Source of the DNA: Rhynchopus sp. YZ270_cl-10
Taxonomy: Eukaryota
Direction of reading: 5' to 3'
DNA: 64,000 nucleotides
NCBI GenBank assembly: GCA_964035575.1
Contig: OZ037838.1
Span: 496,001-560,000 of the forward strand
Under the pieces are notes generated by a model. That model did no database searches, was not told where the DNA came from, and worked only from the letters and a program-made list of their open reading frames with translations. Made by a program: the position numbers and the translations under genes. Every line of letters begins with the position of its first letter. Within the stretch, counting starts at the first letter, position 1. Shown in pieces: positions 2,843 to 56,560 of this stretch.

Positions 2843-4027
2843 TCACTCACTGTTGTGTGGGTACAGATGCCTTGTTACAATTGACCTACCGTATGTGTCC
2901 GCACTCTCAAGCTAGAAAACAACCACGCGTGAACATGGTGATATCGCAAATGGCGCTACGTATTGCACTGCAGAGGTTTGCTTGATCACATGCACACAGG
3001 ACATGGTCGCCACATCATACTGGTGCAGGTGTCCATTGTAATAGGAAGCAAGACCAAATTCGTCAGTACCCCATAGGTCCAAAACACGTTGCTGCACCAC
3101 AAGGTACTTCCCACACGGGGTGAACTGTATGCTCTCCACGTCCCCATCCACATCAACACTGCGAAGAGCCGCACCACTCCAATCATAGAGGTGCACGTTG
3201 CCAGAGCAACCCACAGCAAAGACTGAGGCAGACCGTGAAAGCGCCACACACCGCCGCCCCAGCTCGATCGGCACACACGCCACAGCAACACCAGTGTTCA
3301 CATCCCACAGACGTGCGTTGTTCTCTTTGTAGGAGGAGGTTATCACCCACCCACCACAGTCCGACACTGCTATACCCCAGCACCCTTCGTGCGAGAGAGA
3401 GCGGAGCAACGTCAGGTCTTCGTCATACACAGAGACGCTTGCTTGTTCGCCACGGGAGACAACAACACCGACACACACAAACACTGAGTACGAGGCGCCG
3501 TCGACTTTGCGGAGCACCTCCCCACCCGGAAGCGCAACCTCGTGCATACCGTCCCTGCACGTCAGGTAGCAGCGTGTCTTGCACCGTGAGATGGCAAGCG
3601 GACCATACACATCAAAGTCTACTTTGAAACTGAAGGCAGGGCTGAAGGTTTCTGTATCGAGGCCGGTGATGTAGCCTGCATTCTGTGCTAAGAGGAAGAG
3701 TGCTCCACAAGGAGACAGCGAAAAGTATATTAAATTCTTCTCGGGCCCACCAGTTGACGGCTCTACAGTATATTTATACTCAGCAGGACACTTGATGTCA
3801 GCAAAGCGGCAGGCAAGCACAACCTGCACCCCTGCATCAAACGCAGTGTCCTGCAGACGGCACGTCCCCTCCAGCACCTGCGTGCCGATGCGCATCTCGA
3901 CAGACGCAGGCGAGACAGCAAGCGCCGTGCACGCAACCTCCTTTGCCGCTGCAACGTCCGCCTCGCACGGCACCTCCACTGTCGCAGTCACACCTGACTC
4001 TTCCAGCACAAAGGTCACATCCATCAT
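2843..4027 (-). pseudogene. UBL-beta-propeller copy 2 (in-frame TAG near the C-terminus)
   Basis: ORF stops at 2912-2914, but the same frame continues LESADTYGRSIVTRHLYPHNSE to the family stop at 2843-2845. Confidence 0.75.
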
Positions 4028-4215
4028 ATTGTTAAGGGGTCTGTTGTGTTTGATGTGATGGTTGGTGGTGTCACTTCGCAACGACAAATAAGAAGAGATA
4101 ATACGTGTTTCTAACAGGGCAAATTCCTTGGGGGTGTTTTGAGGGTCTTGGGTTGTTTTGCTGGTACCCTGGGTTATATTGATCACCACCCTCCCTCCCC
4201 TCCTCTGGTCACACA

Positions 4216-5340
4216 TCACTCACTGTTGTGTGGGTACAGATGCCTTGTCACAATGTCGGTATCTCCTTCCAATACCACAACAACACGCGAACACGGCGAT
4301 ATCGCAAATACACCTGAACATTGCGGTATCACATGCACACAGGACATGGTCGCCACATCATACTGGTGCAGAGGTGTATTGTAATCGTCATCAGAATCCG
4401 TACCCTCTACCCTTACCACATCAAAGGTCCTCACCACAAGGTACTTCCCACACGGGGTGAAGTGCATGTCCTCGACATCCCCATCCATACCAACACTGCG
4501 AAGAGCCGCACCACTCCAGTCATAGAGCTGCACGTTGCCAGAGCACCCCACAGCAAAGACAGAGGCAGACCGTGAAAGCGCCACTCCACGCCACCCCTCC
4601 TCCAGCGGCACACATGCAACAGCTTCACCTGTGTTCACATCCCACAGACGTACGTTCCTCTCCTTGTTGGAGGAGGTGACCACCCACCCACCACAGTCCG
4701 ACACTCCCGCGTCCCAGCACCCTTCGTGCGAGAGAGAGCGGAGCAACGTCAGGTCTTCGTCATACACAGAGACGCCGTCTTTGCCCTTCGAGACAACAGC
4801 AACGCCACACGTCCGTATTGAAACCGACGAGCAGTCAATTTTGCGGAGCACCTCCCCACCCGGAAGCGCAACCTCGAGAAGGCCTTCCTTGTTGCACGGC
4901 AGGTAGCAGCGTGTCTTGCACTGCGAGATGGCAGGACGAGCGTACACTTTCAATGCGTCCAGTTTGAACGAGAAGACAGTGTCGAAGGTTTCTGTGTCGA
5001 AGCCGCCAACATGCCCAGTCCTGCTACAATAGACGCAGAGCGTTCCACAACGCGACAGTGACAAGTTGTCCACATGAATTGCAGTGTACTCAGCAGGACA
5101 CTTGATGTCGGCCAAGCGAGGACAGGCAAGCACAACCTGCACCCCTGCCTCAAACGCAGTGTCCTGCAGACGGCACGTCCCCTCCAGCACCTGCGTGCCG
5201 ATGCGCATCTCGACAGACGCAGGCGAGACAGCAAGCGCCGTGCACGCAACCTCCTTTGCCGCTGCAACGTCCGCCTCGCACGGCACCTCCACTGTCGCAG
5301 TCACGCCTGACTCTTCCAGCACAAAGGTCACATCCATCAT
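4216..5340 (-). CDS. UBL-beta-propeller copy 3 (intact)
   Basis: Full-length family ORF from MMDVTF to HLYPHNSE. Confidence 0.85.
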   Translation of the reverse strand: MMDVTFVLEESGVTATVEVPCEADVAAAKEVACTALAVSPASVEMRIGTQVLEGTCRLQDTAFEAGVQVVLACPRLADIKCPAEYTAIHVDNLSLSRCGTLCVYCSRTGHVGGFDTETFDTVFSFKLDALKVYARPAISQCKTRCYLPCNKEGLLEVALPGGEVLRKIDCSSVSIRTCGVAVVSKGKDGVSVYDEDLTLLRSLSHEGCWDAGVSDCGGWVVTSSNKERNVRLWDVNTGEAVACVPLEEGWRGVALSRSASVFAVGCSGNVQLYDWSGAALRSVGMDGDVEDMHFTPCGKYLVVRTFDVVRVEGTDSDDDYNTPLHQYDVATMSCVHVIPQCSGVFAISPCSRVVVVLEGDTDIVTRHLYPHNSE

Positions 5341-6946: not shown

Positions 6947-6990
6947 AAAAAATATATTGCAACGCCTTCTGTCTGCCTGCGGGAGGCACT

Positions 6991-9195
6991 CTACCGCTGC
7001 CTTCTGCACCTCTGGGCAGCTCTGCTCAGTTGCTGTGCTATGCGTGCCTTGCGCTGTGCACGGACCACTGCAGGTGCCTTGCCCCAACCACCACCACCAC
7101 CACCCAGACACCTTCTCCCAGTATACCTCTCCTCATCCAAACAGGTAATGCAGCGGCAACCTGGGTTGCAGGGCGACTCGCATAGCGGCCCTTCGCTGTT
7201 GCCACAGAAGACACTGTTCACACGGCTTGCACCGATCACAGAGGGGCTGTGCTGTGCATGGTCAGCCGGAAGCGCACGATACCGTCGTGCGTTAAGCAGC
7301 ACCGCAAGGTCGAAGATGCGTTTCACGATACGTTCATCAGCACAGCGACCACTGAACGCAACATGCGACATCGTTCTGTACCACTGCGCATCTTCGTCAC
7401 CATCGGGGTCAACACGTTTGCACCATGAGGCATGAAGGCTTCGCACAACGTCAAGGTTTCTGAGTGTCGCCCATCCAGCAGGACCCCTGCTGGGGCCTGT
7501 AAGGAGAATGTCTGGAGAGATGTCGCAGGACTGAAGAAACGATAAATGCACGTCGTGTGCAGACAGAATGACATCGAGGGTGACTGCCGCACCCATGCGC
7601 ATGAGAAGTTGGCAGAGCTTCGGGTGTGCTGCGCTGCTCGATATCAGGCCCTTGAATGTGTCCTGCAGTATCTGGGGCTGATCCACCACCACACCCTGCT
7701 CCCTGCAGTGTCTTAAAATACGAAGCACGCATAGAACCTTCCCTGGTGTGTCCTCGTGGCCCCAACAGTGCGATGCGGAGCTACGCAACGCATAAGCAGT
7801 ATCGTCTGGAGAACGTTCAAACCCATCGAGCATCACATCGACGCAGCGGTGTGCTGCGCATTGCACTGCACTCTGCAGAGTCACCCCTGTACTCCCGTCC
7901 AGCTTGCTGCGGAGGAGCAGGTCAAGCTGGTCTGGGTTGTCGTTTTTGAGGATGTGTTCAAGATGGTACTCAAATGTGCTTGACGGATAGGAGCAGGCAG
8001 GCAGTGGAGAAGCAACATCGATGCCGTGCTCATGAAGGAGCATGTCGCGTGCCACGACAGAGTCTTTCTTCCAGAAGTCCTCCTCAACAACGTTGTGTGG
8101 GTACAGATGTTTCGTCACAATGACGCCATCTGGTTGCATAGCCACAACAACACGTGAACACGGCGATATCGCAAATGACCCATCGCTGCTTTGTGGTGGT
8201 AACACACGTACACAGGACATGGTCGCCACATCATACTGGTGCAGTTGGCCATTGTAAGCATCATCACCCTCGTTTTCAACATCTTCATCTGCATCTACCT
8301 TGACCACAAGGTACTTCCCACACGGAGTGAACTGCATGTCCTGGAGACCCCTACCCACATCAACACTGCGAAGAGCCGCACCACTCCAATCATAGAGGTG
8401 CACGTCGTTTTCCCCTGCCACAGCAAAGACAGAGGCAGACCGTGAAAGCGCCATTCTACACCAGAACCCCCCAGGCACACATACCACAGCAACACCTGTG
8501 TTCACATCCCACAAACGTGCGTTGTCCTCCTCCCAGGAGGAGGTGATCACCCACCCACCACAGTCCGACACTGCCACACGGCAGAACCCTTCGAGCAAGA
8601 GAGAGCGGAGCAACGTCAGGTCTTCGTCATACACAGAGACGCCGTCTTTGCCTTGGGAGACAACAACACCGCCACACGCGAACACTAGGGACGAGGGGCC
8701 GTCGACTTTGCGGATCACCTCCCCACCCGGAAGCGCAACCTCGAGAAGGAAATCCGCACACGCCAGGTAGCAGCGTGTCTTGCACCGTGAAATGGCAGGT
8801 GCAGCGACCACTTTAGTGTCCACTTTGAACGAGAAGACAGTGTCGAATGTTTCTGTGTCGAAGCAGCCAACATGCCCACTCCAGTCACCATAGATGCAGA
8901 GCGTTCCACAACGCGACAGCGACAAGTGTTCTGCATCCTCACTGTACTCAGCAGGACACTTGATGTCAGCAAAGCGGCGGGCAAGCACAACCTGCACCCC
9001 TGCATCAAACGCAGTGTCCTGCAGACGGCACGTCCCCTCCAGCACCTGCGTGCCGATGCGCATCTCGACAGACGCAGGCGAGACAGCAAGCGCCGTGCAC
9101 GCAACCTCCTTTGCCGCTGCAACGTCCGCCTCGCACGGCACCTCCACTGTCGCAGTCACGCCTGACTCTTCCAGCACAAAGGTCACATCCATCAT
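6991..9195 (-). CDS. UBL-beta-propeller copy 4, fused to a ~360-aa helical, Cys-rich and basic C-terminal extension
   Basis: Open frame reads through LYPHN into VVEEDFWKK... and ends RAAQRCRRQR. Confidence 0.8.
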   Translation of the reverse strand: MMDVTFVLEESGVTATVEVPCEADVAAAKEVACTALAVSPASVEMRIGTQVLEGTCRLQDTAFDAGVQVVLARRFADIKCPAEYSEDAEHLSLSRCGTLCIYGDWSGHVGCFDTETFDTVFSFKVDTKVVAAPAISRCKTRCYLACADFLLEVALPGGEVIRKVDGPSSLVFACGGVVVSQGKDGVSVYDEDLTLLRSLLLEGFCRVAVSDCGGWVITSSWEEDNARLWDVNTGVAVVCVPGGFWCRMALSRSASVFAVAGENDVHLYDWSGAALRSVDVGRGLQDMQFTPCGKYLVVKVDADEDVENEGDDAYNGQLHQYDVATMSCVRVLPPQSSDGSFAISPCSRVVVAMQPDGVIVTKHLYPHNVVEEDFWKKDSVVARDMLLHEHGIDVASPLPACSYPSSTFEYHLEHILKNDNPDQLDLLLRSKLDGSTGVTLQSAVQCAAHRCVDVMLDGFERSPDDTAYALRSSASHCWGHEDTPGKVLCVLRILRHCREQGVVVDQPQILQDTFKGLISSSAAHPKLCQLLMRMGAAVTLDVILSAHDVHLSFLQSCDISPDILLTGPSRGPAGWATLRNLDVVRSLHASWCKRVDPDGDEDAQWYRTMSHVAFSGRCADERIVKRIFDLAVLLNARRYRALPADHAQHSPSVIGASRVNSVFCGNSEGPLCESPCNPGCRCITCLDEERYTGRRCLGGGGGGWGKAPAVVRAQRKARIAQQLSRAAQRCRRQR

Positions 9196-9513: not shown

Positions 9514-10695
9514 TCACTCCCCTTCCCCCCCGCTTCCCTCCTCTCCACTGACGCAGTGCTCACCAGAGTATGGGTACAGATGCTGTGTCACAATGACGCC
9601 GTCTGATTGCATAACCATGACAACACGTGAACACGGCGATATCGCAAATTCCCCATTCTCGGTTTGCGACAGAACACGCACACAGGACATGGTCGCCACA
9701 TCGTACTGGTGCAGGTATGACCTGAAATCGGGGTAAATGCTGCTGCCATCAGTATCATCGGTATCCTCATCATCCATAAATTCCGCAACCTCTACCCCCA
9801 CCACAAGGTACTTCCCACACGGGGTGAACTGCATGCCCCCGACACCCCCACCCACATCAACACTGCGAAGAGCCGCACCACTCCAATCAAAGAGGCGTAC
9901 ACTGCTATCGCTCCCCACAGCAAAGACAGAGGCAGACCGCGAAAGCGCCACTACACACCACCTACCCGCAGGCACACATGCCACAGCTTCACCTGTGTTC
10001 ACATCCCACAGACGTGCGCTGTCCTCACTGGAGGTGGTCACCCACCCACCACAGTCCGACACTGCCAGGTCCCTGCACTCTTCGTGCGAGATAGAGCGGA
10101 GCAACGTCAGGTCTTTGTCATACACAGAGACTGCGTCTGTGCCCTTCGAGACAACAACACCACCACACGTCCGTACTGAAACCGAGGGGCCGTCGACTTT
10201 GCGGAGCACCTCCCCACCCGGAAGCGCAACCTCGAGAAGGCAATCCTTGCATGCCAGGTAGCAGCGTGTCTTGCACTGCGAGATGGCAGGTGGACCGAAC
10301 ACTTCATTGGCCACTTTGAACGAGAAGACAGTGTCGAAGGTTTCTGTGTCGAAGCCACCAACATGCCCACTCTCGTTACTGTGGACGCAGAGCGTTCCAC
10401 AACGTGACAACATCAACATCGTCGCTTGCGGCTCTGCAGTGTACTGAGCAGGACACTTGATGTCGGCCAAGCGAGGACAGGCAAGCACAACCTGCACCCC
10501 TGCATCAAACGCAGTGTCCTGCAGACGGCACGTCCCCTCCAGCACCTGCGTGCCGATGCGCATCTCGACAGACGCAGGCGAGACAGCAAGCGCCGTGCAC
10601 GCAACCTCCTTTGCCGCTGCAACGTCCGCCTCGCACGGCACCTCCACTGTCGCAGTCACGCCTGACTCTTCCAGCACAAAGGTCACATCCATCAT
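9514..10695 (-). CDS. UBL-beta-propeller copy 5 (intact, short Gly/Glu tail)
   Basis: Full-length family ORF ending SGEEGSGGEGE. Confidence 0.85.
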   Translation of the reverse strand: MMDVTFVLEESGVTATVEVPCEADVAAAKEVACTALAVSPASVEMRIGTQVLEGTCRLQDTAFDAGVQVVLACPRLADIKCPAQYTAEPQATMLMLSRCGTLCVHSNESGHVGGFDTETFDTVFSFKVANEVFGPPAISQCKTRCYLACKDCLLEVALPGGEVLRKVDGPSVSVRTCGGVVVSKGTDAVSVYDKDLTLLRSISHEECRDLAVSDCGGWVTTSSEDSARLWDVNTGEAVACVPAGRWCVVALSRSASVFAVGSDSSVRLFDWSGAALRSVDVGGGVGGMQFTPCGKYLVVGVEVAEFMDDEDTDDTDGSSIYPDFRSYLHQYDVATMSCVRVLSQTENGEFAISPCSRVVMVMQSDGVIVTQHLYPYSGEHCVSGEEGSGGEGE

Positions 10696-24075: not shown

Positions 24076-24185
24076 TAATTGGATTTAATTGTATTTTATT
24101 GGATTTTATTATCCGTATTTTTTAATTAAATCCAATTAAAAGTATCTCCCTCCAGTAGACCAATTAAATCCAATAAAATTTAATC

Positions 24186-37955: not shown

Positions 37956-38237
37956 GTGAGGATAAAGCCCAAAGACGGACGGTTTGTCTGGTGGTAAATG
38001 GAGGAGAGGGGTGAGGGGAGGAGGAAGGGGGTGAGGATGGCAAAAAGGAGCAATTCCTTTCGCTGCAAAGTAAGGTAATGGGTAGGGGAGGGGAGGTTCC
38101 ATGACTAACGATTGGGGAAGGAACTTTGGTGCTAAAAATACATTTTTTACTTTTGCGTATTTGACTCGCTGGGGTGTTTTTGCAATCACCAAAATCTCAA
38201 AATCGGGCAATGTACCCCGAAAAAACCAGGTCACACA

Positions 38238-39239
38238 TCACTCACTGTTGTGTGGATACAGATGCCTTGTCACAATGACGCCATCTGATTGCACTACCAT
38301 AACAACACGTGAACACGGTGATATCGCGAACGATGCACTCGTGCTATCCGATATCACATGCACACAGGACATGGTTGCCACATCATACTGGTGCAGCACA
38401 TGTGTAGTCCTCACCACAAGGTACTTCCCACACGGGGTGAACTGCATGTCCTCGACAAGCCCACCCACAGCAACACTGCGAAGAGCCGCACCACTCCAAT
38501 TAAAGAGCTGCACGATGCCATTCAGCCCCTCTACAGCAGAGCCCACCACAGCAAAGACAGAGGCAGACCGTGAAAGCGCCACTGCACAGAACCCACTCGC
38601 AGGCACACATACCACAGCTTCACCTGTGCTCACATCCCACAGACGTACGTTACAACGTCAGGTCTTCGTCATACACAGAGACGCCGTCTTTGCCCTGTGA
38701 GACAACAACACAGCCATACGCAAACACTGAGTACGAGGTGCCGTCGACTTTGCGGACCACCTCCCCACCCGGAAGCGCAACCTCGAGAAGACCTTTCCAA
38801 CACGCCAGGTAGCAGCGTGTCTTGCACTTCGAGATGGCAGGCGACCGTACACTTCATTGTCCACTTTGAACGAGAAGACAGTGTCAAAGGTTTCTGTGTC
38901 GAAGCCGCCAACGTGCCCATTCCTGCTACAATAGACGCAGCGTGTTCCACAACGCGACAGCGACAAGTTTACCGCGCGAGTTGCAGTGTACTCAGCAGGA
39001 CACTTGATGTCAGCAAAGCGGCAGGCAAGCACAACCTGAACCCCTGCATCAAACGCAGTGTCCTGCAGACGGCACGTCCCCTCCAGCACCTGCGTGCCGA
39101 TGCGCATCTCGACAGACGCAGGCGAGACAGCAAGCGCCGTGCACGCAACCTCCTTTGCCGCTGCAACGTCCGCCTCGCACGGCACCTCCACTGTCGCAGT
39201 CACGCCTGACTCTTCCAGCACAAAGGTCACATCCATCAT
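38238..39239 (-). pseudogene. UBL-beta-propeller copy 11 (frameshift near 38843, deletion in blade 4 near 38651)
   Basis: Split ORFs 38658..39239 and 38238..38633; the SDCGGW segment is missing. Confidence 0.8.
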
Positions 39240-39558: not shown

Positions 39559-40671
39559 TCACCACTCTTCCTCCCCTCTCCTGGTCACATCACTCACTGT
39601 TGTGTGGTACAGATGCCTTGTCACAATGACGCCATTTAATTTCGTAGCCACAAAAACACGTGAACACGGCGATATCGCAAATGACGTAGCATAGTCTCGC
39701 AGGACCACACGCACACAGGACATGGTTGCCACATCATACTCGTCCAGCATGTGTGTTCCCTTTACCACAAGGTACTTCCCACACGGGGTGAACTGCATGC
39801 ACTCGACATCCCCACGCACATCAACACTGCGAAGAGCCGCACCACTCCAATCAAAGAGGTGCACGGTCTTTTCCTCCACCACAGCAAAGACAGAGGCAGA
39901 CCGTGAAAGCGCCACGAGACCCTGCCACCCGTCCGCAGGCACACATGCCACAGCTTCACCTGTGTTCACATCCCACAGACGTGTGTTGTTTTCCCTGTTG
40001 GAGGAGGTGATCACCCACCCACCACAGTCCGACACTGCCACGTCCCTGCACACTTCGTGCGAGAGAGAGCGGAGCAACGTCAGGTCTTCGTCATACACAG
40101 AGACGCCGTCTTTGCCCTTCGAGACAACAACACTGCCACACGCAAACACTGATTCCGAGTAGCCGTCGACTTTGCGGACCACCTCCCCACCCGGAAGCGC
40201 AACCTCGAGAAGGCAATCCTTGTGGCACGGCAGGTAGCAGCGTGTCTTGCACTGCGAGACGGCAGGCGGACCTAGCACAATATGGGGTAGGTTGAACTCA
40301 AAGACACGGGAAAAGGTTTCTGTGTCCAAGCCAACAACCTTCCGATCACAAAAATAGATGCAGAGCGTTCCACAACGCGACAGCGACATCACTACGTTCA
40401 ACGACGACTCCTTCAAATTGTACTCAGCAGGACACTTGATGTTGGCAAAGCGGCGGGCAAGCACAACCTGCACCCCTGCATCAAACGCAGTGTCCTGCAG
40501 ACGGCACGTCCCCTCCAGCACCTGCGTGCCGATGCGCATCTCGACAGACGCAGGCGAGACAGCAAGCGCCGTGCACGCAACCTCCTTTGCCGCTGCAACG
40601 TCCGCCTCGCACGGCACCTCCACTGTCGCAGTCACGCCTGACTCTTCCAGCACAAAGGTCACATCCATCAT
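39559..40671 (-). CDS. UBL-beta-propeller copy 12 (1-nt loss in the last codons alters the C-terminus)
   Basis: tgtgtggtac instead of tgtgtgggtac near 39606; otherwise full length. Confidence 0.7.
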   Translation of the reverse strand: MMDVTFVLEESGVTATVEVPCEADVAAAKEVACTALAVSPASVEMRIGTQVLEGTCRLQDTAFDAGVQVVLARRFANIKCPAEYNLKESSLNVVMSLSRCGTLCIYFCDRKVVGLDTETFSRVFEFNLPHIVLGPPAVSQCKTRCYLPCHKDCLLEVALPGGEVVRKVDGYSESVFACGSVVVSKGKDGVSVYDEDLTLLRSLSHEVCRDVAVSDCGGWVITSSNRENNTRLWDVNTGEAVACVPADGWQGLVALSRSASVFAVVEEKTVHLFDWSGAALRSVDVRGDVECMQFTPCGKYLVVKGTHMLDEYDVATMSCVRVVLRDYATSFAISPCSRVFVATKLNGVIVTRHLYHTTVSDVTRRGEEEW

Positions 40672-41432
40672 TGTGTTGCGTTGCTTCGTGAGAAGGTGCA
40701 AATCAGCACGTTTGCTCCACGACAAACGGAGGGAGTGATGAGGTGGGTGGGGGAGAGGTGTTGTTCTGTGTTGCATGTTTGTGGTGGTTCTCGTTGTGAG
40801 AGGTGACGAATGGAAAATGACACTCAACATCGCGATCTGTCACCCACACGAGAGCACCGCATGGGCAGCGTGATGGGACTGGAGGGATGTCTCTCTGTGG
40901 GCGTAGACAGGTATCAAAAGGGAGGTAGGGAGTGCGGGTGTGGTGTGCAAGAGACAACAAACAGGTCGGGGAGAGGTCTTTGTTTTGTCTTTGAAAGCTT
41001 GGTTGTATTAGTGTGGATGTGCTCCACTGTGTTTTGCTTTTAAACGTGGACACCATCCTTTGGTTCTTGCCCTGCTGAGGCAGCATTAGTTTTGTATTTC
41101 ATGACTTTTCAGTTTCTCTCCCCTCTGCGGTGTGAAGCGCAAACACTCTTTCTATTTGCTTCGCAGACCGGTAACTGACTCACGAAGTGTGTCCAATCCT
41201 GCTCATTTCTCTCAACATCATAAAAATCTCAAACCACACAAATGAAGGGAAAGGGAATAATGGGCACACAAATGAATGGGGTGAACGACATCTTCTTCGT
41301 TCTCAAACACGAAAACCTTGAAAGTGATGTGCAAACCTACGAAGGATAGAAAATGAATGCATCGCAATAAAATGTCTTTGCGTTTCACACAGGGACACCT
41401 CACTCAGGGGTGACCCCGAGACACAAGAAAAA

Positions 41433-41640
41433 GAGAAATATTTATAAGATGACCCTAAGCCTCTCTGTGCTTAGTCACCTTGAGCACATTCGTTATCGCA
41501 CAGCATCAGCTGCGTGGGTTTCCACAAGTTTGTTGTCAGGGTTGATGCCATTTCCCTAGCGGGAGTTCGTAATGTTGGCACGTACGACGCAGTGTTCGAG
41601 CATGTGCATGGTGTAGCGCGGGTACGTGAATTGGGCGACG
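41433..41640 (-). mobile_element. ~210-bp 3'-end copy of retroposon family B
   Basis: Matches about 5976-6182, including the stem-loop. Confidence 0.75.
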
Positions 41641-41768
41641 AAAAAAAGCTTGAAAACACAAGTCATTCGCAGTGTAGTCCTCATCCCAGCCAGTGGCAGC
41701 AAAAATCCAAATAACGGTGTTTTTTGGGTACTTTCAGTTTGCACCACCCTCCCACCCCTCGCGAAACA

Positions 41769-42891
41769 TCACTCACTGTTGTGTGGGTACAGATATTTTG
41801 TTGCAATGACGCGATCTGATTGAATAGCCATAACAACACGCGAACACGGCGATATCGCAAAGGACCCACCTGTTCCGTGCGGTAACACATGCACACAGGA
41901 CATGGTCGCCACATCATACTGGTGCAGGAAAGTCGTCCCAAAGCATCGTGTGTCCACGAACCTAACTACGGCGTACTTCCCACATGGAGTGAACTGCACG
42001 CCACAGACGCTCAGCTGCTCGTCTTCAAAGCGTCCAAGAACCGCACCACTCCAGTCATAGAGGTACGCTTTGTCATAGTACTCCACAGCAAAGACAGAGG
42101 CAGACCGCGAAAGCGCAACACACCACCCATTTGCAGCGGCACACATGCCACAGCTTCACCTGTGTTCACATCCCACAGACGTGCGTTCTCCTCCTTGTCG
42201 GAAAAGGTGATCACCCACCCACCACAGTCCGACACTGCCATGCTCCTGCACCCTTCATGTGAGAGAGAGAGCGGAGCAACGTCAGGTCTTCGTCATACAC
42301 AGAGACGTTGCCTTCGCCCTGCGAGACAACAACACCACCACACGCAAACGGCGTTCTCAAGGAGCCGTCGACTTTGTGGACCACCTCCCCACCCGGAAGC
42401 GCAACCTCCGCAAGACAATTCCGATCCGCCATGTAGCAGCGTGTCTTGCACCGCGAGATGGCAGGCGCATCACACACCTCAATGTTTGATTTGAACCTGA
42501 AGGCAGGGCTGAAGGTTTCTGTATTGAGGCCGGTGACACAGTCATCCTCCTGTGCAAAGAGGCAGAGTGCTCCACAAGGAGACAGCGACAAATGCCTAAT
42601 TTCCCTCTCCGGCTTTCCAATTGGCACCTCTGCACTGTACTCAGCAGGACACTTGATGTCGGCAAAGCGGGGGCGGGCAAGCACAACCTGCACCCCTGAA
42701 TCAAACGCAGTGTCCTGCAGACGGCACGTCCCCTCCAGCACCTGCGTGCCGATGCGCATCTCGACAGACGCAGGCGAGACAGCAAGCGCCGTGCACGCAA
42801 CCTCCTTTGCCGCTGCAACGTCCGCCTCGCACGGCACCTCCACTGTCGCAGTCACGCCTGACTCTTCCAGCACAAAGGTCACATCCATCAT
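41769..42891 (-). pseudogene. UBL-beta-propeller copy 13 (two frameshifts)
   Basis: Three overlapping ORF pieces: 42211..42951, 42011..42241 and 41769..42146. Confidence 0.8.
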
Positions 42892-43543
42892 ATTGTTAAG
42901 GGTTCTGTTGTGTTTGATGTGATGGTTGGTGGTGTCACTTCGCAACGACAAATAAGAAGGTTGGTGGGCTAAATACGTGTTTCAACAAACTCTGATAAAG
43001 AAAGCAATTTGAAGATACCCTGCGACAAACACACAGTCGTTGTGGTTTGCCAAAGATCGTGGGGTGGAATGATTCTTTCCTGTGGTTGTTGTTGGATTGA
43101 TTTGTGCTTTTTTTGCCAGGATTGTGGCCAAAGTATACATGATGAGATGATCGTGTTGTTGTTTGGCTAAGTGGTGGAGAAGGAACAGGATGAGGATGTC
43201 AGGCAGTGCAGCTACCTCAGATGCTGTGCGTTTGGCAAGTTGCAGCGTCTGTGCAGAACGTCCAGCTCAGGCGAAAAGAAGAGAAAGTGCAAAAAGAAGT
43301 GACTTGAGATACAATGCCTTGCCCTGGCAGTGTACCTTTTGGTGCGTTACCAGAACACCGTGGGTGGACCCGCGGCTGATCCCCCTAGACATAGATGGCG
43401 TGCGAAGAGTTTTCTTTGCATTCTTCTTCGCATTCGGGGAAAGCTAAAAGGGGTTTCTTGGGGGTGTTTTGAGGGTCTTGGGTTGTTTTGCTGACGCTGT
43501 GTTATATTGATCACCACCCTCCCTCCCCTCCCCTGGTCACACG

Positions 43544-44668
43544 TCACTCACTGTTGTGTGGGTACAGATGCCTTGTCGCAATGATGCCATTTGCTTGCAT
43601 GACCACAACAACACGCGAACACGGCGATATCGCAAAGGACCCTCCGACACGGGTTTGCGGTATCACACGCACACAGGACATGGTCGCCACATCATACTGG
43701 TGCAGGTGTACATCGTAATCAGGCCAATCTTCGTCATCATCATTATACTCCGCTACACCTACCCCCACCACAAGGTACTTCCCACACGGGGTGAACTGCA
43801 TGCTCTCGGCATCCCCACCCACATCAACACTGCGAAGAGCCGCACCACTCCAATCATAGAGGTGCACGTCGCCAGAGCACCCCACAGCAAAGACAGAAGC
43901 AGACCGTGAAAGCGCCACTGCTTCGTCCCGCCACCCCGCAGGCACACATGCCACAGCTTCACCTGTGTTCACATCCCACAGACGTGCGTTCATCTCACTC
44001 AGGGAGGAAGTGATCACCCACCCACCACAGTCCGACACTGCCACACGCACAAACCCTTCATGCGAGAGAGAGCGGAGCAACGTCAGGTCTTCGTCATACA
44101 TAGAGACTCCGTCATTGCCCTTCGAGACAACAACACCGCCACACGCAAACACTGAGTACGAGATGCCGTCGACTTTGCGGAGCACCTCCCCACCTGGAAG
44201 CGCAACCTCGAGAAGGTGATCCTCACACGCCAGGTAGCAGCGTGTCTTGCACTGCGAGATGGCAGGTGTAGCGTCTGCTTCGGCTGCGTCCACTTTGAAC
44301 GAGAAGACAGTGTCGAAGGTTTCTGTGTCGAAGCCGCCAACATGACCACTACTGTGACTATAGACGCAGAGCGTTCCACAACGCGACAGTGACCAGCATC
44401 CCACATGCGTTGCAGTGTACTCAGCAGGACACTTGATATCGGCAAAGCGGCGGGCAAGCACAACCTGCACCCCTGCATCAAACGCAGTGTCCTGCAGACG
44501 GCACGTCCCCTCCAGCACCTGCGTGCCGATGCGCATCTCGACAGACGCAGGCGAGACAGCAAGCGCCGTGCACGCAACCTCCTTTGCCGCTGCAACATCC
44601 GCCTCGCACGGCACCTCCACTGTCGCAGTCACGCCTGACTCTTCCAGCACAAAGGTCACATCCATCAT
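43544..44668 (-). CDS. UBL-beta-propeller copy 14 (intact)
   Basis: Full-length family ORF. Confidence 0.85.
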   Translation of the reverse strand: MMDVTFVLEESGVTATVEVPCEADVAAAKEVACTALAVSPASVEMRIGTQVLEGTCRLQDTAFDAGVQVVLARRFADIKCPAEYTATHVGCWSLSRCGTLCVYSHSSGHVGGFDTETFDTVFSFKVDAAEADATPAISQCKTRCYLACEDHLLEVALPGGEVLRKVDGISYSVFACGGVVVSKGNDGVSMYDEDLTLLRSLSHEGFVRVAVSDCGGWVITSSLSEMNARLWDVNTGEAVACVPAGWRDEAVALSRSASVFAVGCSGDVHLYDWSGAALRSVDVGGDAESMQFTPCGKYLVVGVGVAEYNDDDEDWPDYDVHLHQYDVATMSCVRVIPQTRVGGSFAISPCSRVVVVMQANGIIATRHLYPHNSE

Positions 44669-46394: not shown

Positions 46395-47525
46395 TCACTC
46401 ACTGTTGTGTGGGTACAGATGCCTTGTCGCAATGACGCCATCAGGTTGCATAACCACAAGAGTACGTGAACACGGAGATATCGCAAATGACACAACTGAG
46501 CTATGCGGCATCACATGCACACAGGACATGGTCGCCACATCATACTGGTGCAGGTAGGAGTTGTACACCAGATCATCGGTGTCCACACCATTTATGAACT
46601 CCGTAATCACTACCCCCACCACAAGGTACTTCCCACACGGGGTGAACTGCATGTCGTCGACAAGCCCACTGACATCAACACTGCGAAGAGCCGCACCACT
46701 CCAGTCATAGAGCTGCACGTTGCCAGAGCCCACCACAGCAAAGACAGAGGCAGACCGTGAAAGCGCCACTTGTACGCACGACCACTCGTCGGACTCCACC
46801 GGCACACAGGCCACAAAAATACCCATGTTCACATCCCACAGACGTGCGTTGTTATCCTTGTTGGAGGAGGTGATCACCCACCCACCACAGTCTGAAACTG
46901 CCACCTCCTCACACTCTTCGTGCGAGAGAGAGCGGAGCAACGTCAGGTCTTCGTCATACACAGAGACGACGTTGACTCCCATCGAGACAACAACACCGCC
47001 ACACGCGACCACTGAGTGCGAGAGGCTGTCAACTTTGCGGACCACCTCCCCACCCGGAAGCGCAACCTCGGCAAGGTAACCCAAACACGGCATGTAGCAG
47101 CGTGTCTTGCACTGCGAGATGGCAGGTACACCGGACACTTTAGTGTCCACTTTGAACGAGAAGACAGTGTCGAAGGTTTCTGTGTCAAAGCCGCCAACAT
47201 ACCCACTCCCATTACCATAGATGCAGAGCGTCCCACAACACGACAGTCTTATGCTTCCCGCATGCGTTGCAGTGTACTCAGCAGGACACTTGATGTCGGC
47301 AAAGCGGCGGGCAAGCACAACCTGCACCCCTGCATCAAACGCAGTGTCCTGCAGACGGCACGTCCCCTCCAGCACCTGCGTGCCGATGCGCATCTCGACA
47401 GACGCAGGCGAGACAGCAAGCGCCGTGCACGCAACCTCCTTTGCCGCTGCAACGCCCGCCTCGCACGGCACCTCCACTGTCGCAGTCACGCCTGACTCTT
47501 CCAGCACAAAGGTTACATCCATCAT
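46395..47525 (-). CDS. UBL-beta-propeller copy 15 (intact)
   Basis: Full-length family ORF, 376 aa. Confidence 0.85.
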   Translation of the reverse strand: MMDVTFVLEESGVTATVEVPCEAGVAAAKEVACTALAVSPASVEMRIGTQVLEGTCRLQDTAFDAGVQVVLARRFADIKCPAEYTATHAGSIRLSCCGTLCIYGNGSGYVGGFDTETFDTVFSFKVDTKVSGVPAISQCKTRCYMPCLGYLAEVALPGGEVVRKVDSLSHSVVACGGVVVSMGVNVVSVYDEDLTLLRSLSHEECEEVAVSDCGGWVITSSNKDNNARLWDVNMGIFVACVPVESDEWSCVQVALSRSASVFAVVGSGNVQLYDWSGAALRSVDVSGLVDDMQFTPCGKYLVVGVVITEFINGVDTDDLVYNSYLHQYDVATMSCVHVMPHSSVVSFAISPCSRTLVVMQPDGVIATRHLYPHNSE

Positions 47526-49855: not shown

Positions 49856-50983
49856 TCACTCACTGTTGTGTGGGTACAGATGCGTGGACACAATAACGCC
49901 ATTTGTTTGCATGACCACAAGAATACGTGAACACGGAGATATCGCAAAAGACCCGCCATAGCTTTGCGGTATCACATGCACACGGGACATGGTCGCCACA
50001 TCATACTGGTGCAGGTGTACATCGTAATCAGGCCATTCGTCATCATCATTAAACTCCGCAACCTCCACCCTCACCACAAGGTACTTCCCACACGGGGTGA
50101 ACTGCATGTCCTTGACATCCCCACGCACATCAACACTGCGAAGAGCCGCACCACTCCAATCAAAGAGGTGCACGTTACCAGAGCCCTCCACAGCAAAGAC
50201 AGAGGCAGACCGTGAAAGCGCCACCCCTCCACACCACCCCTCCTCCAGCGGCACACATGCCACATCTTCACCTGTGTTCACATCCCACAGACGGGCGTTG
50301 TTCTCATTGCTGGAGGAGGTGATCACCCACCCACCACAGTCCGACACTGCCACACGCCCGCACTCTTCGTGCGAGAGAGAGCGGAGCAACGTCAGGTCTT
50401 CGTCATACACAGAGACGCCGTCTTTGCCCTCAGAGACAACAACACCGCCACACGCGGACACAGACTCTGAGATACCGTTGACTTTGCGGAGCACCTCCCC
50501 ACCCGGAAGCGCAACCTCGCATATGCTCTCCTTGCACGTCAGGTAGCAGCGTTTCTTGCAAGCTGAGATGGCAGGTGCACCGTACGCACATACGCCCATG
50601 TCGTCGACAAAGAAGGTGCTCTCAAAGGTTTCTGTATCCAAACCATACATGCTCCTATTACATTCGTCATACAAGACACAAAGCGTCCCACAACGCGAGA
50701 GTGACCAGCAGATCAACATCCCCTCTACACTGTGCATAGCAGGACACTTGATGTCAGCAAAGCGGCGGGCAAGCACAACCTGCACCCCTGCATCAAACGC
50801 AGTGTCCTGCAGACGGCACGTCCCCTCCAGCACCTGCGTGCCGATGCGCATCTCGACAGACGCAGGCGAGACAGCAAGCGCCGTGCACGCAACCTCCTTT
50901 GCCGCTGCAACGTCCGCCTCGCACGGCACCTCCACTGTCGCAGTCACGCCTGACTCTTCCAGCACAAAGGTCACATCCATCAT
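49856..50983 (-). CDS. UBL-beta-propeller copy 16 (intact)
   Basis: Family start MMDVTF at 50983 within ORF 49856..51349. Confidence 0.85.
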   Translation of the reverse strand: MMDVTFVLEESGVTATVEVPCEADVAAAKEVACTALAVSPASVEMRIGTQVLEGTCRLQDTAFDAGVQVVLARRFADIKCPAMHSVEGMLICWSLSRCGTLCVLYDECNRSMYGLDTETFESTFFVDDMGVCAYGAPAISACKKRCYLTCKESICEVALPGGEVLRKVNGISESVSACGGVVVSEGKDGVSVYDEDLTLLRSLSHEECGRVAVSDCGGWVITSSSNENNARLWDVNTGEDVACVPLEEGWCGGVALSRSASVFAVEGSGNVHLFDWSGAALRSVDVRGDVKDMQFTPCGKYLVVRVEVAEFNDDDEWPDYDVHLHQYDVATMSRVHVIPQSYGGSFAISPCSRILVVMQTNGVIVSTHLYPHNSE

Positions 50984-51388: not shown

Positions 51389-52509
51389 TCACTCGTTGTG
51401 GGGGTGCAGATGTCTTGTCGCAACGTTGGTGCAATCGAAAGACACATATGATAGAAACACAACCACACGTGAACACGGTGATATCACAAATGACTGATCG
51501 GTGACGTCTGGGATCACAAGTACACAAGACATGGTCGCCACATCATACTGGTGCAGCTCTTGAGGTTCTCCATCGTCAGTAAACTTATGTACGTAGACCA
51601 CAAGGTACTTCCCACACGGGGTGAACTGCACGCTAACGACACTTCCAGAGACAGTGGCGTTCTGAAGAGCCGCACCACTCCAGTCGTAGAGCTGCACTCG
51701 CTCTGCCTCATCCACACAGCCCCCCACAGCAAAGACAGAGGCAGACCATGAAATTGAAACCGCTACAGCGCACGTGGACATAGGCACACATGCCACAGCT
51801 TCACCTGTGTTCACATCCCACAGACGTGCGTTCTTTTCCTTGACGGAGGAGGTGATCACCCACCCACCACAGTCCGACACTGCCATGTGTCTACACACCC
51901 TGTGCAAGAGAGTGCGGAGCAACGTCAGGTCTTCGTCATACACAGAGACGCCGTCTTCGCCTTGGGAGACAACAGCGTTGCCACACGCGGATACTAACTT
52001 CGAGGGGCCGTCGACTTTGCGAAGCACCTCCCCACCCGGAAGCGCAAGCTCGAGAAGGCGATCCACACACGGTAGGTAGCAACGTGTCTTGCACCGTGCG
52101 ATGGCAGGTGGACCGCAATGAAACAGTCACTCTCAACAGTAAAAACGAAGGCAGTTTCGAAGGTTTCTGTATCGAAGCCGCCAACACATGTACTTCTACT
52201 ATAAAGGCAGAGCGTACCACAACGCGACAGCGACAAATTCATCACTCCCCCATCCACACTGTACTCAGCAGGACACTTGATGTCGGCAAAGCGGCGGGCA
52301 AGCACAACCTGCACCCCTGCATCAATCGCAGTGTCCTGCAGACGGCACGTCCCCTCCAGCACCTGCGTGCCGATGCGCATCTCGACAGACGCAGGCGAGA
52401 CAGCAAGCGCCGTGCACGCAACCTCCTTTGCCGCTGCAACGTCCGCCTCGCACGGCACCTCCACTGTCGCAGTCACGCCTGACTCTTCCAGCACAAAGGT
52501 CACATCCAT
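51389..52509 (-). pseudogene. UBL-beta-propeller copy 17 (frameshift near 52110)
   Basis: Split ORFs 51994..52668 and 51389..52066. Confidence 0.75.
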
Positions 52510-53345
52510 TGTTTTGCGTTGCTTCGTGAGAAGGTGCAAATCAGCACGTTTGCTCCACCACCAACGGAGGGAGTGACGAGGTGGGTGGGGGAGAGGTGTT
52601 GTTCTGTGTTGCATGTTTGTGGTGGTTCTCGTTGTGAGAGGTGACGAATGGAAAATGATACTCAACATCGCGATCTGTCACCCACACGAGAGCACCGCAT
52701 GGGCAGCGTGATGGGACTGGAGGGATGTCTCTCTGTGGGCGGAGACAGGTATCAAAAGGGAGGTAGGGAGTGCGGGTGTGGTGTGCAAGAGACAACAAAC
52801 AGGTCGGGGAGAGGTCTTGTTTTGTTTTTTTTCAAAGCTTGGTTGTATTAGTGTGGATGTGATCCACTATGTTTTCTTTGAACGAGGTCACCATCCTTTG
52901 GTTCTTGCCCTGCTGAGGCAGCATCAGTTTTGTATTTTCACGACTTTTAGTTTCTCTATCCTCTGCGATATGAAGCGCAAACACTCTTTCAATTTGCATC
53001 GCAGACCGGTAACTGACTCACGAAGTGTGTCAAAAACACCTTCCTCTGCGAGGCGGGATACCACAGCGACAACATCTATCACTGATGTGTCTGTGAGTGC
53101 TCAATGGCGTCATAGCTTTTATCATGACCACAGGCGTCCAATCCTGCTCATTTCTCTCAACATCATAAAAATCTCAAACCACACAAATGAATGGGGTGAA
53201 CGACATCTTCTTCGTTCTCAAACACGAAAACCTTGAAAGTGATGTGCAAACCTACAAAGGATAGAAAATGAATGCATCGCAATAAAATGTCTTTGCGTTT
53301 CACACAGGGACACCTCACTCAGGGGTGACCCCGAGACACAGGAAA

Positions 53346-53556
53346 AAGAGAAAGATTTATAAGATGACCCTTAGCCTCTCTGTGCTTAGTCACCTTGAGC
53401 ACATTCGTTATCGCGCAGCATCAGCTGCGTGGGTTTCCACAAGTTTGCTGTCAGGGTTGATGTCATTTCCCTAGCGGGAGTTCGTAATGTTGACTCGTAC
53501 GATGTAGTGTTCGAGCATGTGCATGGTGTAGCGCGGGTACGTGAATTGGGCGACGG
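53346..53556 (-). mobile_element. ~210-bp 3'-end copy of retroposon family B (duplicated together with 41433-41640)
   Basis: Same boundaries and flanks as the 41.4-kb copy. Confidence 0.75.
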
Positions 53557-53683
53557 AAAAAAGCTTGAAAACACAAGTCATTCGCAGTGTAGTCCTCATC
53601 CCAGCCAGTGGCAGCAAAAAATCCAAATAACGGTGTTTTTGGGTACTTTCAGTTTGCACCACCCTCCCACCCCTCGCGAAACA

Positions 53684-54785
53684 TCACTCACTGTTGTGTG
53701 GGTACAGATGCCTTGTTGCAATGCCGTTTGTTGTTGCACCCTCGAACACAACCACACGCGAACACGGTGATATCGCAAAGGACCCACTATAGAGTTGCGA
53801 TATCACACGCACACAGGTCGTTGTCACCACATCATACTGGTGTAGTTGCACATCAGATTCCGCAACCTCCACCCTTACCACAAGGTACTTCCCACACGCG
53901 GTAAACTGCATGTCCTTGACATCCCCATCCACATCAACACTGCGAAGAGCCGCACCACTCCAATCATAGAGCTGCACGTTACCAGAGCCCTCCACAGCAA
54001 AGACAGAGGCAGACCGTGAAAGCGCCAGTTTACACCACCTCACCGCAGGCACACATGCCACAGCTTCACCTGTGTTCACATCCCACAGACGTACGTTCTG
54101 CTCCCTGCTGGAGGAGGTGATCACCCACCCACCACAGTCCGACACTGCCACATTCCAGCACCCTTCGTGCGAGAGAGAGCGGAGCAACGTCAGGTCTTCG
54201 TCATACACAGAGACGACGTTGTGGCCCTTCGAGACAACAACACCACCACACGTCCGTATTGAAACGGAGGGGCAGTCGACTTTGCGGAGCACCTCCCCAC
54301 CCGGAAGCGCAACCTCAAGACGGCAATCCCCACACGCCAGGTAGCAGCGTGTCTTGCACCGTGAGATGGCAGGCCGACCGTACACTTCATTGTCCACTTT
54401 GAACGAGAAGACAGTTTCAAAGGTTTCTGTGTCGAAGCCACCAACATGCCTGCCCCTGCTACAATAGACGCAGAGCGTTCCACAACGCGACAGCGACAAG
54501 TTTTCCACATCTGTTGCATTGTACTGAGCAGGACACTTGATATCTGCCAAGCGAGGACAGGCAAGCACAACCTTGCACCCCTGCATCAAACGCAGTGTCC
54601 TGCAGACGGCACGTCCCCTCCAGCACCTGCGTGCCGATGCGCATCTCGACAGACGCAGGCGAGACAGCAAGCGCCGTGCACGCAACCTCCTTTGCCGCCG
54701 CAACGTCCGCAACGTCCGCCTCGCACGGCACCTCCACTGTCGCAGTCACGCCTGACTCTTCCAGCACAAAGGTCACATCCATCAT
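53684..54785 (-). pseudogene. UBL-beta-propeller copy 18 (1-nt insertion near 54573; 9-bp duplication ADVADV)
   Basis: cacaaccttgcaccc versus family cacaacctgcaccc; ORFs 54459..54845 and 53684..54712. Confidence 0.75.
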
Positions 54786-55441
54786 ATTGTTAAGGGTTCT
54801 GTTGTGTTTGATGTGATGGTTGGTGGTGTCACTTCGCAACGACAAATAAGAAGGTTGGTGGGTTAAATACGTGTTTCAACAAAAACGTCTGATAAAGAAA
54901 GCAACTAGAAGATACCCTGAGGCAAACATACAGTCGTTGTCGTTTGCCAAAGATTGTGGTGTGGAATGCTTCTTTCCTGGGGTTGTCGTCGAATTGATTT
55001 ACGTTTTTTTGCCAGGATTGTGGCCAAAGTATACATGATGAGATGATCGTGTTGTTGTTTGGCTAAGTGGTGGAGAAGGAACAGGATGAGGATGTCAGGC
55101 AGTGCAGCTACCTCAGATGCTGTGCGTTTGGCAAGTTGCAGCGTCTGTGCAGAACGTCCAGCTCAGGCGAAAAGAAGAGAACGTGCAAAAAGAAGTGACT
55201 CGAGACACAAGGCCTTGCCCTGGCAGTGTACCTTTTGGTGCGTGACCAGAACACCGTGGGTGGACCCGCGGCTGATCCCCCTAGACAGATGGCGTGTGAA
55301 GAGTTTTCTTTGCATTCTTCTTCGCATTCGGGGGGAAAGCTAAAAGGGGTTTCTTGGGGGTGTTTTGAGGGTCTTGGGTTGTTTTGCTGGGTCCCTGGGG
55401 TATATTCATCACCACCCTCCCTCCCCTCCCCTGGTCACACA

Positions 55442-56560
55442 TCACTCACTGTCGTGTGGGTACAGATGTCTTGTCGCAATGACGCCATTTGTTTGCATGA
55501 CCACAAGAATACGTGAACACGGTGATATCGCAAATGACCCTCCAGAGAGTAGCGGGATCACATGCACACGGGACATGGTCGCCACATCATACTGGTGCAG
55601 GTGTACATCGTAAACAGTCCAATCTTCGTCATCATAATTACACTTTTCTACCCCCACCACAAAGTACTTCCCACACGGGGTGAACTGCATGTCCTTGACA
55701 TCCCCACCCACATCAACACTGCGAAGAGCCGCACCACTCCAATCAAAGAGCTGCACGCTCTTTCCCATATGTCCCCCCACAGCAAAGACAGAGGCAGACC
55801 GTGAAAGCGCCACGAGACACTGCCACCCGTCCGCAGGCACACATGCCACAACTTCACCTGTGTTCACATCCCACAGACGTGCGTTCTTGTCCTTCCTGGA
55901 GGAGGTGATCACCCACCCACCACAGTCCGACACTGCCATGCCCCTGCATGCTTCATGAGAGAGAGAGCGGAGCAACGTCAGGTCTTCGTCGTACACAGAG
56001 ACGCCGTCTTCGCCCTTCGAGACAACAACACCACCACACGTTCGTACTGAAACCGAGGGGCAGTCGACTTTGCGGAGCACCTCCCCACCCGGAAGCGCAA
56101 CTTCGAGAAGGCAATCCCCACACGGCAGGTAGCAGCGTGTCTTGCACCGTGAGATGGCAGGCGGACCGAATACATTGTCCACTTTGAACGAAAAGACAGT
56201 GTCAAAGGTTTCTGTGTCGAAGCCGCCAACATACCCAGTACAGTCACCATATACGCAGAGCGTTCCACAACACGACAGCGACAAGTAGTCTGCTTGCTGC
56301 CGCCAACTGTACTCAGCAGGACACTTGATGTCAGCAAAGCGGCGGGCAAGCACAACCTGCACCCCTGCACCAAACGCAGTGTCCTGCAGACGGCACGTCC
56401 CCTCCAGCACCTGCGTGCCGATGCGCATCTCGACAGACGCAGGCGAGACAGCAAGCGCCGTGCACGCAACCTCCTTTGCCGCTGCAACGTCCGCCTCGCA
56501 CGGCACCTCCACTGTCGCAGTCACGCCTGACTCTTCCAGCACAAAGGTTACATCCATCAT
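55442..56560 (-). CDS. UBL-beta-propeller copy 19 (intact)
   Basis: Family start at 56560 within ORF 55442..56698. Confidence 0.85.
   Translation of the reverse strand: MMDVTFVLEESGVTATVEVPCEADVAAAKEVACTALAVSPASVEMRIGTQVLEGTCRLQDTAFGAGVQVVLARRFADIKCPAEYSWRQQADYLSLSCCGTLCVYGDCTGYVGGFDTETFDTVFSFKVDNVFGPPAISRCKTRCYLPCGDCLLEVALPGGEVLRKVDCPSVSVRTCGGVVVSKGEDGVSVYDEDLTLLRSLSHEACRGMAVSDCGGWVITSSRKDKNARLWDVNTGEVVACVPADGWQCLVALSRSASVFAVGGHMGKSVQLFDWSGAALRSVDVGGDVKDMQFTPCGKYFVVGVEKCNYDDEDWTVYDVHLHQYDVATMSRVHVIPLLSGGSFAISPCSRILVVMQTNGVIATRHLYPHDSE

Follow-up and report, generated by a model that had tools for sequence, protein, structure and literature searches.

A 64,000-nucleotide stretch of contig OZ037838.1 (assembly GCA_964035575.1, positions 496,001 to 560,000 of the forward strand) from the diplonemid Rhynchopus sp. 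YZ270_cl-10, hereafter the window, carries 19 tandem copies of a gene encoding an N-terminal ubiquitin-like domain (UBL) followed by a WD40 propeller. As determined from the open reading frame (ORF) listing and a self-comparison of the window, all copies lie on the minus strand between positions 786 and 56557, with a repeat unit of ~1.1 kb, and form two clusters (786-22523 and 38238-56557). The count comprises 18 near-identical UBL starts and one 5′-truncated copy, and the numbering agrees with that of the initial annotation, which cited copy 1 (786-1964) while placing the start of the array beyond it, at 2843. The genes have no apparent introns, an ORF of ~375 amino acids covering both UBL and propeller. 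The full UBL and propeller frame is retained in 12 of the 19 copies, one of which (copy 12) has altered last codons.

Copy 14 was modeled using AlphaFold2 with a diverse 23-sequence alignment, which yielded a beta-grasp domain (residues 1-80, predicted local distance difference test score [pLDDT] 82-91) and a seven-bladed propeller, with a mean pLDDT of 90. In the first fold, based on 94 of 120 close homologues, the UBL was of low confidence; it was resolved by the diverse alignment. Among known structures, the predicted propeller resembles seven-bladed G-beta and WD40 proteins. Ubiquitin and UBL chains are recovered with a profile of the family N-domains (E-value of the best single domain, 7e-6), and four of eight N-domains have a Pfam ubiquitin match. 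The window UBL alone, used as a query against Pfam, PDB, and Atlas, gave nothing useful; the whole-protein Atlas search returned only generic WD40 clusters (<=0.85), and a viral fold search only generic propellers (9-16% identity). A hydrophobic patch of Leu8, Ile44, and Val70 is the mark of proteasome-shuttle UBLs of the Rad23/Dsk2 type. In an ungapped alignment to ubiquitin, these places are occupied by E9, R45, and A71, and a di-glycine after the UBL is absent from all 19 aligned copies, so the protein is probably neither a conjugated modifier nor a classic proteasome shuttle. Because the Ile44-type patch is absent, the partner of the UBL is probably not among the proteasome ubiquitin receptors. 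No cullin-binding domain was detected, and neither a hydrophobic leader nor a membrane segment was seen in copy 14 by crude hydropathy (maximum over 19-residue windows, 1.37; N-terminal, 0.68).

The window copies belong to a family of at least 120 members. A search with copy 14 gave 415 proteins at E-values up to 0.001, the best 120 of which are all at least 70% identical, each form their own 90% cluster, come from ENA or from the window, and lie on contigs of eight different sizes. Protein-level figures below rest on these best 120 matches to copy 14, from which seven without a recognizable C-terminal motif and nine identical to window copies were removed and to which the 19 window copies were added, for a set of 123 proteins; DNA-level tests were confined to the 19 window copies. 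A profile search of 50% representatives revealed intermediate members and five distant full-length relatives, which keep the two-domain layout at 22-39% mutual identity. Searches with these distant relatives recovered three on large ENA contigs, the remainder being generic WD40 proteins; the family looks lineage-restricted, within the limits of the searches. Literature searches of incomplete coverage found no description of this family, and the main texts (supplements apart) of two reports on diplonemid genomes (PMC10161547 and bioRxiv 10.64898/2026.01.29.702485) contain none of the words "WD40," "ubiquitin," or "propeller."

The copies are mosaic in ancestry. The initial annotation proposed segment shuffling because variant segments are shared by incompatible sets of copies, and this sharing is borne out by the alignment: SPCGAL..TFSPAF is common to copies 2, 6, 9, and 13; EPQA..HSN to copies 1, 5, and 10; PLEEGW to copies 3, 7, and 16; PADGWQ to copies 12 and 19 (copy 8 has a one-residue variant); SHEECEEVAV to copies 9 and 15; and YDVHLHQYD to copies 14, 16, and 19. 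Trees built blade by blade are not congruent, with 17 supported conflicts (copy 11 was omitted from trees and counts because of its deletion). Blade 1 groups copies 2+6+9+13 (ultrafast bootstrap support [UFBoot], 100) and 1+5+10 (98); blade 3 groups 9+15 (93) and 3+5+18+19 (99); each of blades 5-7 groups 6+17 (100); and blade 7 groups 4+10 (97) and 1+5+8 (96). Copy 10, which joins copies 1 and 5 in one blade and copy 4 in another, also has the tail of copy 4 (99.0% over 622 nt). Likewise, copies 6 and 17 have common flanks (92.7% upstream and 95.1% downstream) in addition to blades 5-7, and blade 1 of copy 6 joins that of copies 2, 9, and 13, not that of copy 17.

Because fast-evolving loops can mimic conflicting groups, clonal simulations were run on the whole-propeller tree using fitted site rates. 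The 17 observed conflicts compare with none in 98 and one in 2 of 100 such simulations, and the ratio of near to far incompatibilities is 0.80, whereas 500 simulations of this kind gave 0.94+-0.02 and never fell below 0.88. Eight tracts scored at least 12, against 0.16 expected under clonal simulations; SHEECEEVAV reached the tract threshold, and PLEEGW, PADGWQ, and YDVHLHQYD individually did not. Approximately unbiased tests, in which the trees of other blades were rejected in 42 of 42 cases, were set aside in favor of simulation, since each blade's own tree is favored by construction. The pairwise homoplasy index (PHI) was significant (z=-9.8, p=0.0005), and it was also significant when limited to the 12 full-length copies (z=-5.1), when indel-adjacent codons were masked (146 codons kept; z=-3.2), and when seven obvious mosaics or parents were removed (z=-2.8). 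At the protein level, a copying model (switch rate, 0.01) gained 904 log units, compared to 43-327 in three clonal simulations and ~3-fold the gain in the closest matched of these, with ~2.8 segments per gene across the 123 proteins. Derived loop patches were shared by 275 pairs, against 24.5 expected from column shuffles. The mosaicism is more than clonal descent would produce, in agreement with the recombination between copies that had been proposed.

The unit of exchange is smaller than the blade envisaged in the initial annotation. Tracts span 32-151 nt, compared to 102-135 nt for blades, and seven of the eight (32-78 nt) fall below any blade length. The correlation between neighboring loop patches is much the same within a blade (0.114) as across a boundary (0.099) and drops to 0.02 three patches away, and a shared patch rarely continues into the next one (6.2% of cases versus 2.5% expected). 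DNA linkage likewise shows no boundary effect (across minus within blade, -0.060; clonal, -0.022+-0.023), and its excess fades by ~100-130 nt. Since blades of one gene are only ~20% identical (mean 0.20 and maximum 0.33 in copy 14), the exchange is one between the same positions of different genes. Switch positions from the copying model, being arbitrary inside invariant blocks, were not used for breakpoints. Such blocks lack the informative sites by which a breakpoint could be placed, and the anchoring of exchange on them that the initial annotation suggested is putative. In the 123-protein alignment, the first and last blades again show higher patch correlation (0.05-0.07 at lags of 10-13), which could reflect internal conversion that leaves the ends linked, or contact between the adjacent blades 1 and 7.

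Copies 12-14 and 17-19 are duplicates of a three-gene block, in which the spacers differ by 3.2% and 4.2% and the UBLs by 0.5-1.4%, compared to 16-27% for the propellers; at four-fold sites, block partners differ by 10.9-13.5%, against an all-pair mean of 14.4%. Copies 13 and 18 have both flanks in common and different blade-1 types, and such replacement of an interior between matching flanks is the expected product of conversion. The same UBL follows each of three unrelated 5′ flank types (A, B, and C), and the change from flank to UBL falls only a few bases from the ATG. Copies 1 and 5 are 7.7% apart and differ in their 5′ flanks, which would fit an exchange within the UBL. At four-fold sites, diversity rises from 0.011 in the UBL (48 sites) through 0.10 in the core of the propeller (91 sites) to 0.23 in the top-face loops (46 sites), a gradient that purifying selection at the protein level alone does not explain. 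The UBL has accordingly been homogenized, as the initial annotation suggested. Conversion was probably the main route of exchange, with some unequal crossover suggested by the block duplicates, the flank swaps, and the truncated copy.

Variability is confined to the d-a and b-c loops, which make up the predicted top face of the propeller. Across the 123 proteins, these loops have an entropy of 2.04 bits, compared to 0.35 for the a-b and c-d segments and 0.11 for the UBL, and 13 of the 14 loop patches have 100-122 distinct sequences each. With so many sequences per patch, point substitution under selection appears to be the main source of variation, which conversion redistributes. The earlier idea that recombination creates combinatorial diversity would therefore cover only part of what is seen. 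Under site model M2a, 25% of codons have omega (the ratio of nonsynonymous to synonymous rates) of 4.7, with twice the log-likelihood difference (2dlnL) of 517; when silent-rate classes and multi-nucleotide changes were allowed, omega fell to ~2.2 and was still significant (2dlnL 42 and 65). Nearly all codons selected with high posterior probability (53 of 54) are located in the top-face patches, which comprise 129 of the 275 codons. Omega in the core is 0.45-0.56. Loop sites vary without base bias, the number of alternative alleles per consensus site being 1.98 for A, 1.63 for C, 1.78 for G, and 1.59 for T.

Other explanations for these patterns were considered, among which the exchange of whole blades as modules, with crossovers in the invariant turns, is the version put forward in the initial annotation. 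The well-supported conflicting groups in blade trees, the fading of excess linkage over roughly one blade, and the tract between copies 4 and 10, which spans blade 7 plus a little, would fit it. It is unlikely, given that within- and across-blade correlations are alike in proteins and DNA, that most tracts are shorter than any blade, and that blades this dissimilar within a gene leave no room for interchange between positions. A targeted mutator resembling a diversity-generating retroelement or a deaminase, which would rewrite the loops and leave conversion a secondary part, is very unlikely. Silent diversity is indeed 2.3-fold higher in loops than in the core, multi-nucleotide changes strongly improve the fit (2dlnL ~380 in loops), and a reverse transcriptase lies nearby (60855-63458). 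However, the loops lack base bias, the silent gradient is explained by linkage to selected codons together with differential conversion, and this reverse transcriptase carries RNase H and is LINE-like (for long interspersed nuclear element), presumably belonging to a LINE-type clade.

Marginally less credible again is that the copies spread clonally in a star-like expansion, the loops being substituted rapidly and repeatedly and the shared motifs arising by convergence, a scenario compatible with the near-star tree, the profusion of distinct alleles in 13 of 14 patches, and a nonsignificant PHI at silent sites. Clonal simulations with the same site rates nonetheless fail to reproduce the data, identical UBLs stand behind three unrelated flank types, and block partners are as different as random pairs. 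We give the least credence of all to the possibility that the mosaics arose in assembly, as chimeras from the collapse of a high-copy repeat, although unitigs over copy 10 are only 58-170 nt long and provide no phasing, a gap of 200 N is present at 11583-11782, and exact UBL matches between copies reach 234 nt. Propellers share exact matches of only 46 nt at the median and 113 nt at most, proteins of the window are found on contigs of 0.46 and 2.7 Mb, and seven of the eight tracts differ by 1-3 mismatches from the window copy that they match (a copy elsewhere could be the true parent). Moreover, ~2.8 segments per gene in 123 proteins would demand pervasive misjoins; chimeric misjoins are thus an unlikely source of the mosaics.

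Several observations count against mosaicism by conversion combined with selection on the loops. PHI computed on 31 third-position sites in conserved codons was not significant (p=0.77), and only six tracts pass the 95% simulation threshold. The best observed tract score was 22.7, and 21.8 was reached by one of 300 clonal simulations; the longest-identical-run statistic (16.5) lies above all 500 permutations and yet within the clonal range, the highest value in 500 simulations being 17.0. Over the loop partition as a whole, omega reaches only 1.4, codon tests relied on our own code and one fixed tree and ignored recombination, which inflates omega, and the loop patches were drawn from model strands after the variability had been seen. 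The 123-protein set is skewed toward the 120 matches nearest to copy 14. Reads, in the form of unitig contigs of 5 of 11 runs, confirm a high-copy family and the local sequence and are too short for gene phase. Seven of the 19 copies (2, 6, 8, 11, 13, 17, and 18) are broken, although some of the frameshifts may be sequencing errors. Finally, the block spacers may alternatively be alike through homogenization, which would itself be recombination.

On balance, we consider it probable that the 19 copies are part of a large diplonemid UBL-WD40 family whose members became mosaics through short, position-matched conversions, whose loops are likely under positive selection, and which would constitute an intracellular binding repertoire. 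The substitution, selection, and conversion patterns are sequence signatures, from which we infer the causal steps. Point substitutions would be selected in the 14 top-face loops, and short conversions (tens to ~150 nt) likely spread and recombine the loop variants between paralogs. Frequent conversion would keep the UBL and the bottom-face turns alike, preserving homology for further exchange, in a putative feedback whereby near-identical segments convert most often and so stay alike, while selection preserves the loop variants. Occasional unequal crossover may alter copy number and flanks. Each propeller would bind a different foreign or fast-changing protein, be it from an endosymbiont, a virus, or prey, and would be linked by its constant UBL to one invariant host partner.

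The same genetics might serve another role, namely that of a neutral or selfish repeat or of a housekeeping adaptor family with relaxed loops. The broken copies, the high core omega, and an architecture similar to that of the ribosome-assembly factor Rsa4 lend this some weight, but it is the less plausible role, since a codon class with omega above 2 survives correction, variation is found on one face only, and the distant relatives retain the two-domain layout despite their divergence. A bolder extension, which we regard as doubtful, is that diplonemids diversify intracellular receptors on an ongoing basis, with the UBL acting as both adaptor and recombination anchor and the 14 patches being reshuffled, within clonal populations, across hundreds of genes and pseudogenes to form an anticipatory immune repertoire.

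Recognition of foreign proteins by this family is suggested by analogy to known systems. In nematodes, the F-box and MATH-BTB expansions combine a constant adaptor with a fast-evolving substrate-binding domain and have been proposed to act against foreign proteins; the window family is similarly large, with one constant and one fast-evolving domain, the adaptor here being a UBL. Among the HNWD genes of Podospora (het-d/het-e), which encode NACHT-WD40 allorecognition proteins, the cited part of PMC1805685 describes inter-locus conversion or unequal crossover, a homogenized framework, pseudogenes, and positive selection in the d-a loop and b-c turn of the top face, all of which have counterparts in the window array. 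In contrast, HNWD proteins have NACHT and HET domains, while the window family has none (Pfam scans, which covered 7 of the 19 copies, gave no NTPase family). Furthermore, HNWD repeats are near-identical within a gene, are exchanged as units, and have four selected codons per repeat (PMC1805685, same part), whereas the window blades are 20% identical, undergo position-matched exchange below the blade scale, and contain 54 selected codons. The zebrafish NLR-B30.2 family, as far as the portion of PMC4852459 cited here extends, comprises hundreds of clustered paralogs in which one domain is homogenized by conversion, with a very low silent rate, and another is positively selected, with short tracts recombining its variants; clustered paralogs with one homogenized and one selected domain are likewise found in the window. 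The zebrafish proteins consist of NACHT, LRR, and B30.2 domains in a vertebrate, whereas the window proteins are two-domain UBL-WD40 proteins of a single-celled eukaryote. The process resembles that in the HNWD and NLR-B30.2 families, yet the UBL-WD40 family belongs to neither; for each of them, as for mosaic VSGs and Rsa4/Ytm1, defining features were looked for and found absent.

Variant surface glycoproteins (VSGs) are surface coat proteins that are expressed one at a time; unlike VSGs, the window family has no leader or membrane segment visible in copy 14 and no evident expression site. Mosaic VSGs of Trypanosoma brucei are built from short templated patches averaging ~46 bp that come from homologous family members (in the section cited from PMC11383311), and the window family shares with them a euglenozoan host, short patches (32-151 nt), and broken copies in the array. 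Adenine-specific variation, the mark of diversity-generating retroelements, is absent, since all four bases vary similarly. Rsa4/NLE1 and Ytm1/WDR12 are conserved low-copy genes, unlike the hypervariable array in the window. The cited part of PMC6624252 describes both as ribosome assembly factors with a UBL and a WD40 propeller, and this N-to-C order is the same in the window family. The alignment of Rsa4 (4wjs) with the copy 14 model extends over 503 columns (template modeling score 0.55, 10% identity, root-mean-square deviation 12 A), which is long enough to cover both domains. The NLE domain (PF08154) gave no match in eight N-domains at E-values up to 10, nor in the other Pfam scans.

Table 1. 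Members of the UBL-WD40 array and associated features in the window
Feature	Coordinates	Strand	Remarks
Copy 1	786..1964	-	Intact UBL-WD40; 5′ flank type A
Copy 2	2843..4024	-	Premature stop ahead of last strand; blade-1 type as 6, 9, 13
Copy 3	4216..5337	-	Intact
Copy 4	6991..9192	-	Intact; in-frame C-terminal extension ~6991-8090, no match in Pfam scan
Copy 5	9514..10692	-	Intact; 5′ flank type B; propeller 7.7% from copy 1 (flank A)
Copy 6	11925..13137	-	Frameshift near 3′ end; blade 1 as 2/9/13, blades 5-7 and flanks as 17
Copy 7	14431..15561	-	Intact
Copy 8	15885..16986	-	5′-truncated within UBL, frameshifted; adjoins stop of ORF 16989-18350
Copy 9	18790..19914	-	Intact; blade 1 as 2/6/13; 78-nt tract common with copy 15 at ~19258-19338
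Copy 10	20586..22523	-	Intact mosaic; 1/5-like tracts ~22140-22268; 4-like ~21363-21518 and common C-terminal extension
Copy 11	38238..39236	-	Internal deletion and frameshifts
Copy 12	39559..40668	-	Full UBL and propeller, altered last codons; block partner is copy 17
Copy 13	41769..42888	-	Two frameshifts; flanks of copy 18 (94.8%, 96.8%), propeller 25.7% different
Copy 14	43544..44665	-	Intact; structure-model copy; UBL ~44453-44665, propeller ~43556-44416
Copy 15	46395..47522	-	Intact
Copy 16	49856..50980	-	Intact; 5′ flank type B
Copy 17	51389..52509	-	One frameshift; 5′ flank type C
Copy 18	53684..54782	-	One frameshift; 9-nt UBL duplication
Copy 19	55442..56557	-	Intact; 5′ flank type B
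Two spacers of block 12-14 (copy 13 between)	40669..43543	-	3.2% and 4.2% from block 17-19 spacers
Two spacers of block 17-19 (copy 18 between)	52510..55441	-	
Distant propeller-family member, 538-amino-acid ORF	36618..38234	-	Directly after copy 11; family profile E=1.9e-13

Individual copies carry additional features (Table 1). The 99.0% identity of copies 4 and 10 over 622 nt lies in their C-terminal extensions (6991-8090 and 20586-21360, respectively), that of copy 10 being shorter by ~330 nt. Copy 10 also has a private ~45-nt insertion in the loop after blade 1 (~22100-22140, minus strand), which repeats part of the preceding sequence; a 112-nt unitig from run X2 matches this region without differences. 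In copy 6, the b-c loop of blade 5 contains a ~25-codon insertion (~12230-12310, minus strand) with a basic run, which we take to resemble a nuclear localization signal. A pyrimidine-rich stretch followed by AG is located ~60 nt upstream of type-A copies (e.g., 44666-44740), a possible candidate for a spliced-leader acceptor. The 453-amino-acid ORF whose stop codon adjoins the truncated UBL of copy 8 (16989-18350, minus strand) has no convincing Pfam match, and the N-terminus of the 538-amino-acid distant family member is not matched by the UBL profile.

Other genes surround or interrupt the array. A USB1/HVSL-type 2H phosphoesterase gene (PF09749, E=9.9e-16) lies within it (45475-46140, minus strand), and an FtsX-like permease gene is found at 27539-30913 (minus strand), with its best named relatives in the EukProt transcriptome "Rhum" (52%; presumably a Rhynchopus) and Diplonema papillatum (47%), which marks the host as a diplonemid; a plasmid search with this ORF gave no match. 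Beside the array, the ORF for reverse transcriptase and RNase H (60855-63458, plus strand) and a 30-nt A run (63838-63867) look like a non-long-terminal-repeat retrotransposon. Perfect tandem arrays of a 7-mer (x58.6) and a 40-mer (x9.5) occupy 48669-49078 and 24369-24747, respectively, and the 200-N scaffold gap falls between copies 5 and 6.

This family supplies concrete candidates, in diplonemids, for the recognition of intracellular bacteria and viruses by free-living protists. The signature of diversified receptors, namely a large array with a homogenized constant domain, a selected binding face, and patch exchange, occurs here in a domain arrangement that is otherwise familiar from ribosome assembly. 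The array is also a clean natural example of a single 1.1-kb gene in which conversion acts at three rates. Because diplonemids are relatives of trypanosomes, it suggests that mosaics of the VSG kind also form outside parasites and in proteins other than surface antigens.

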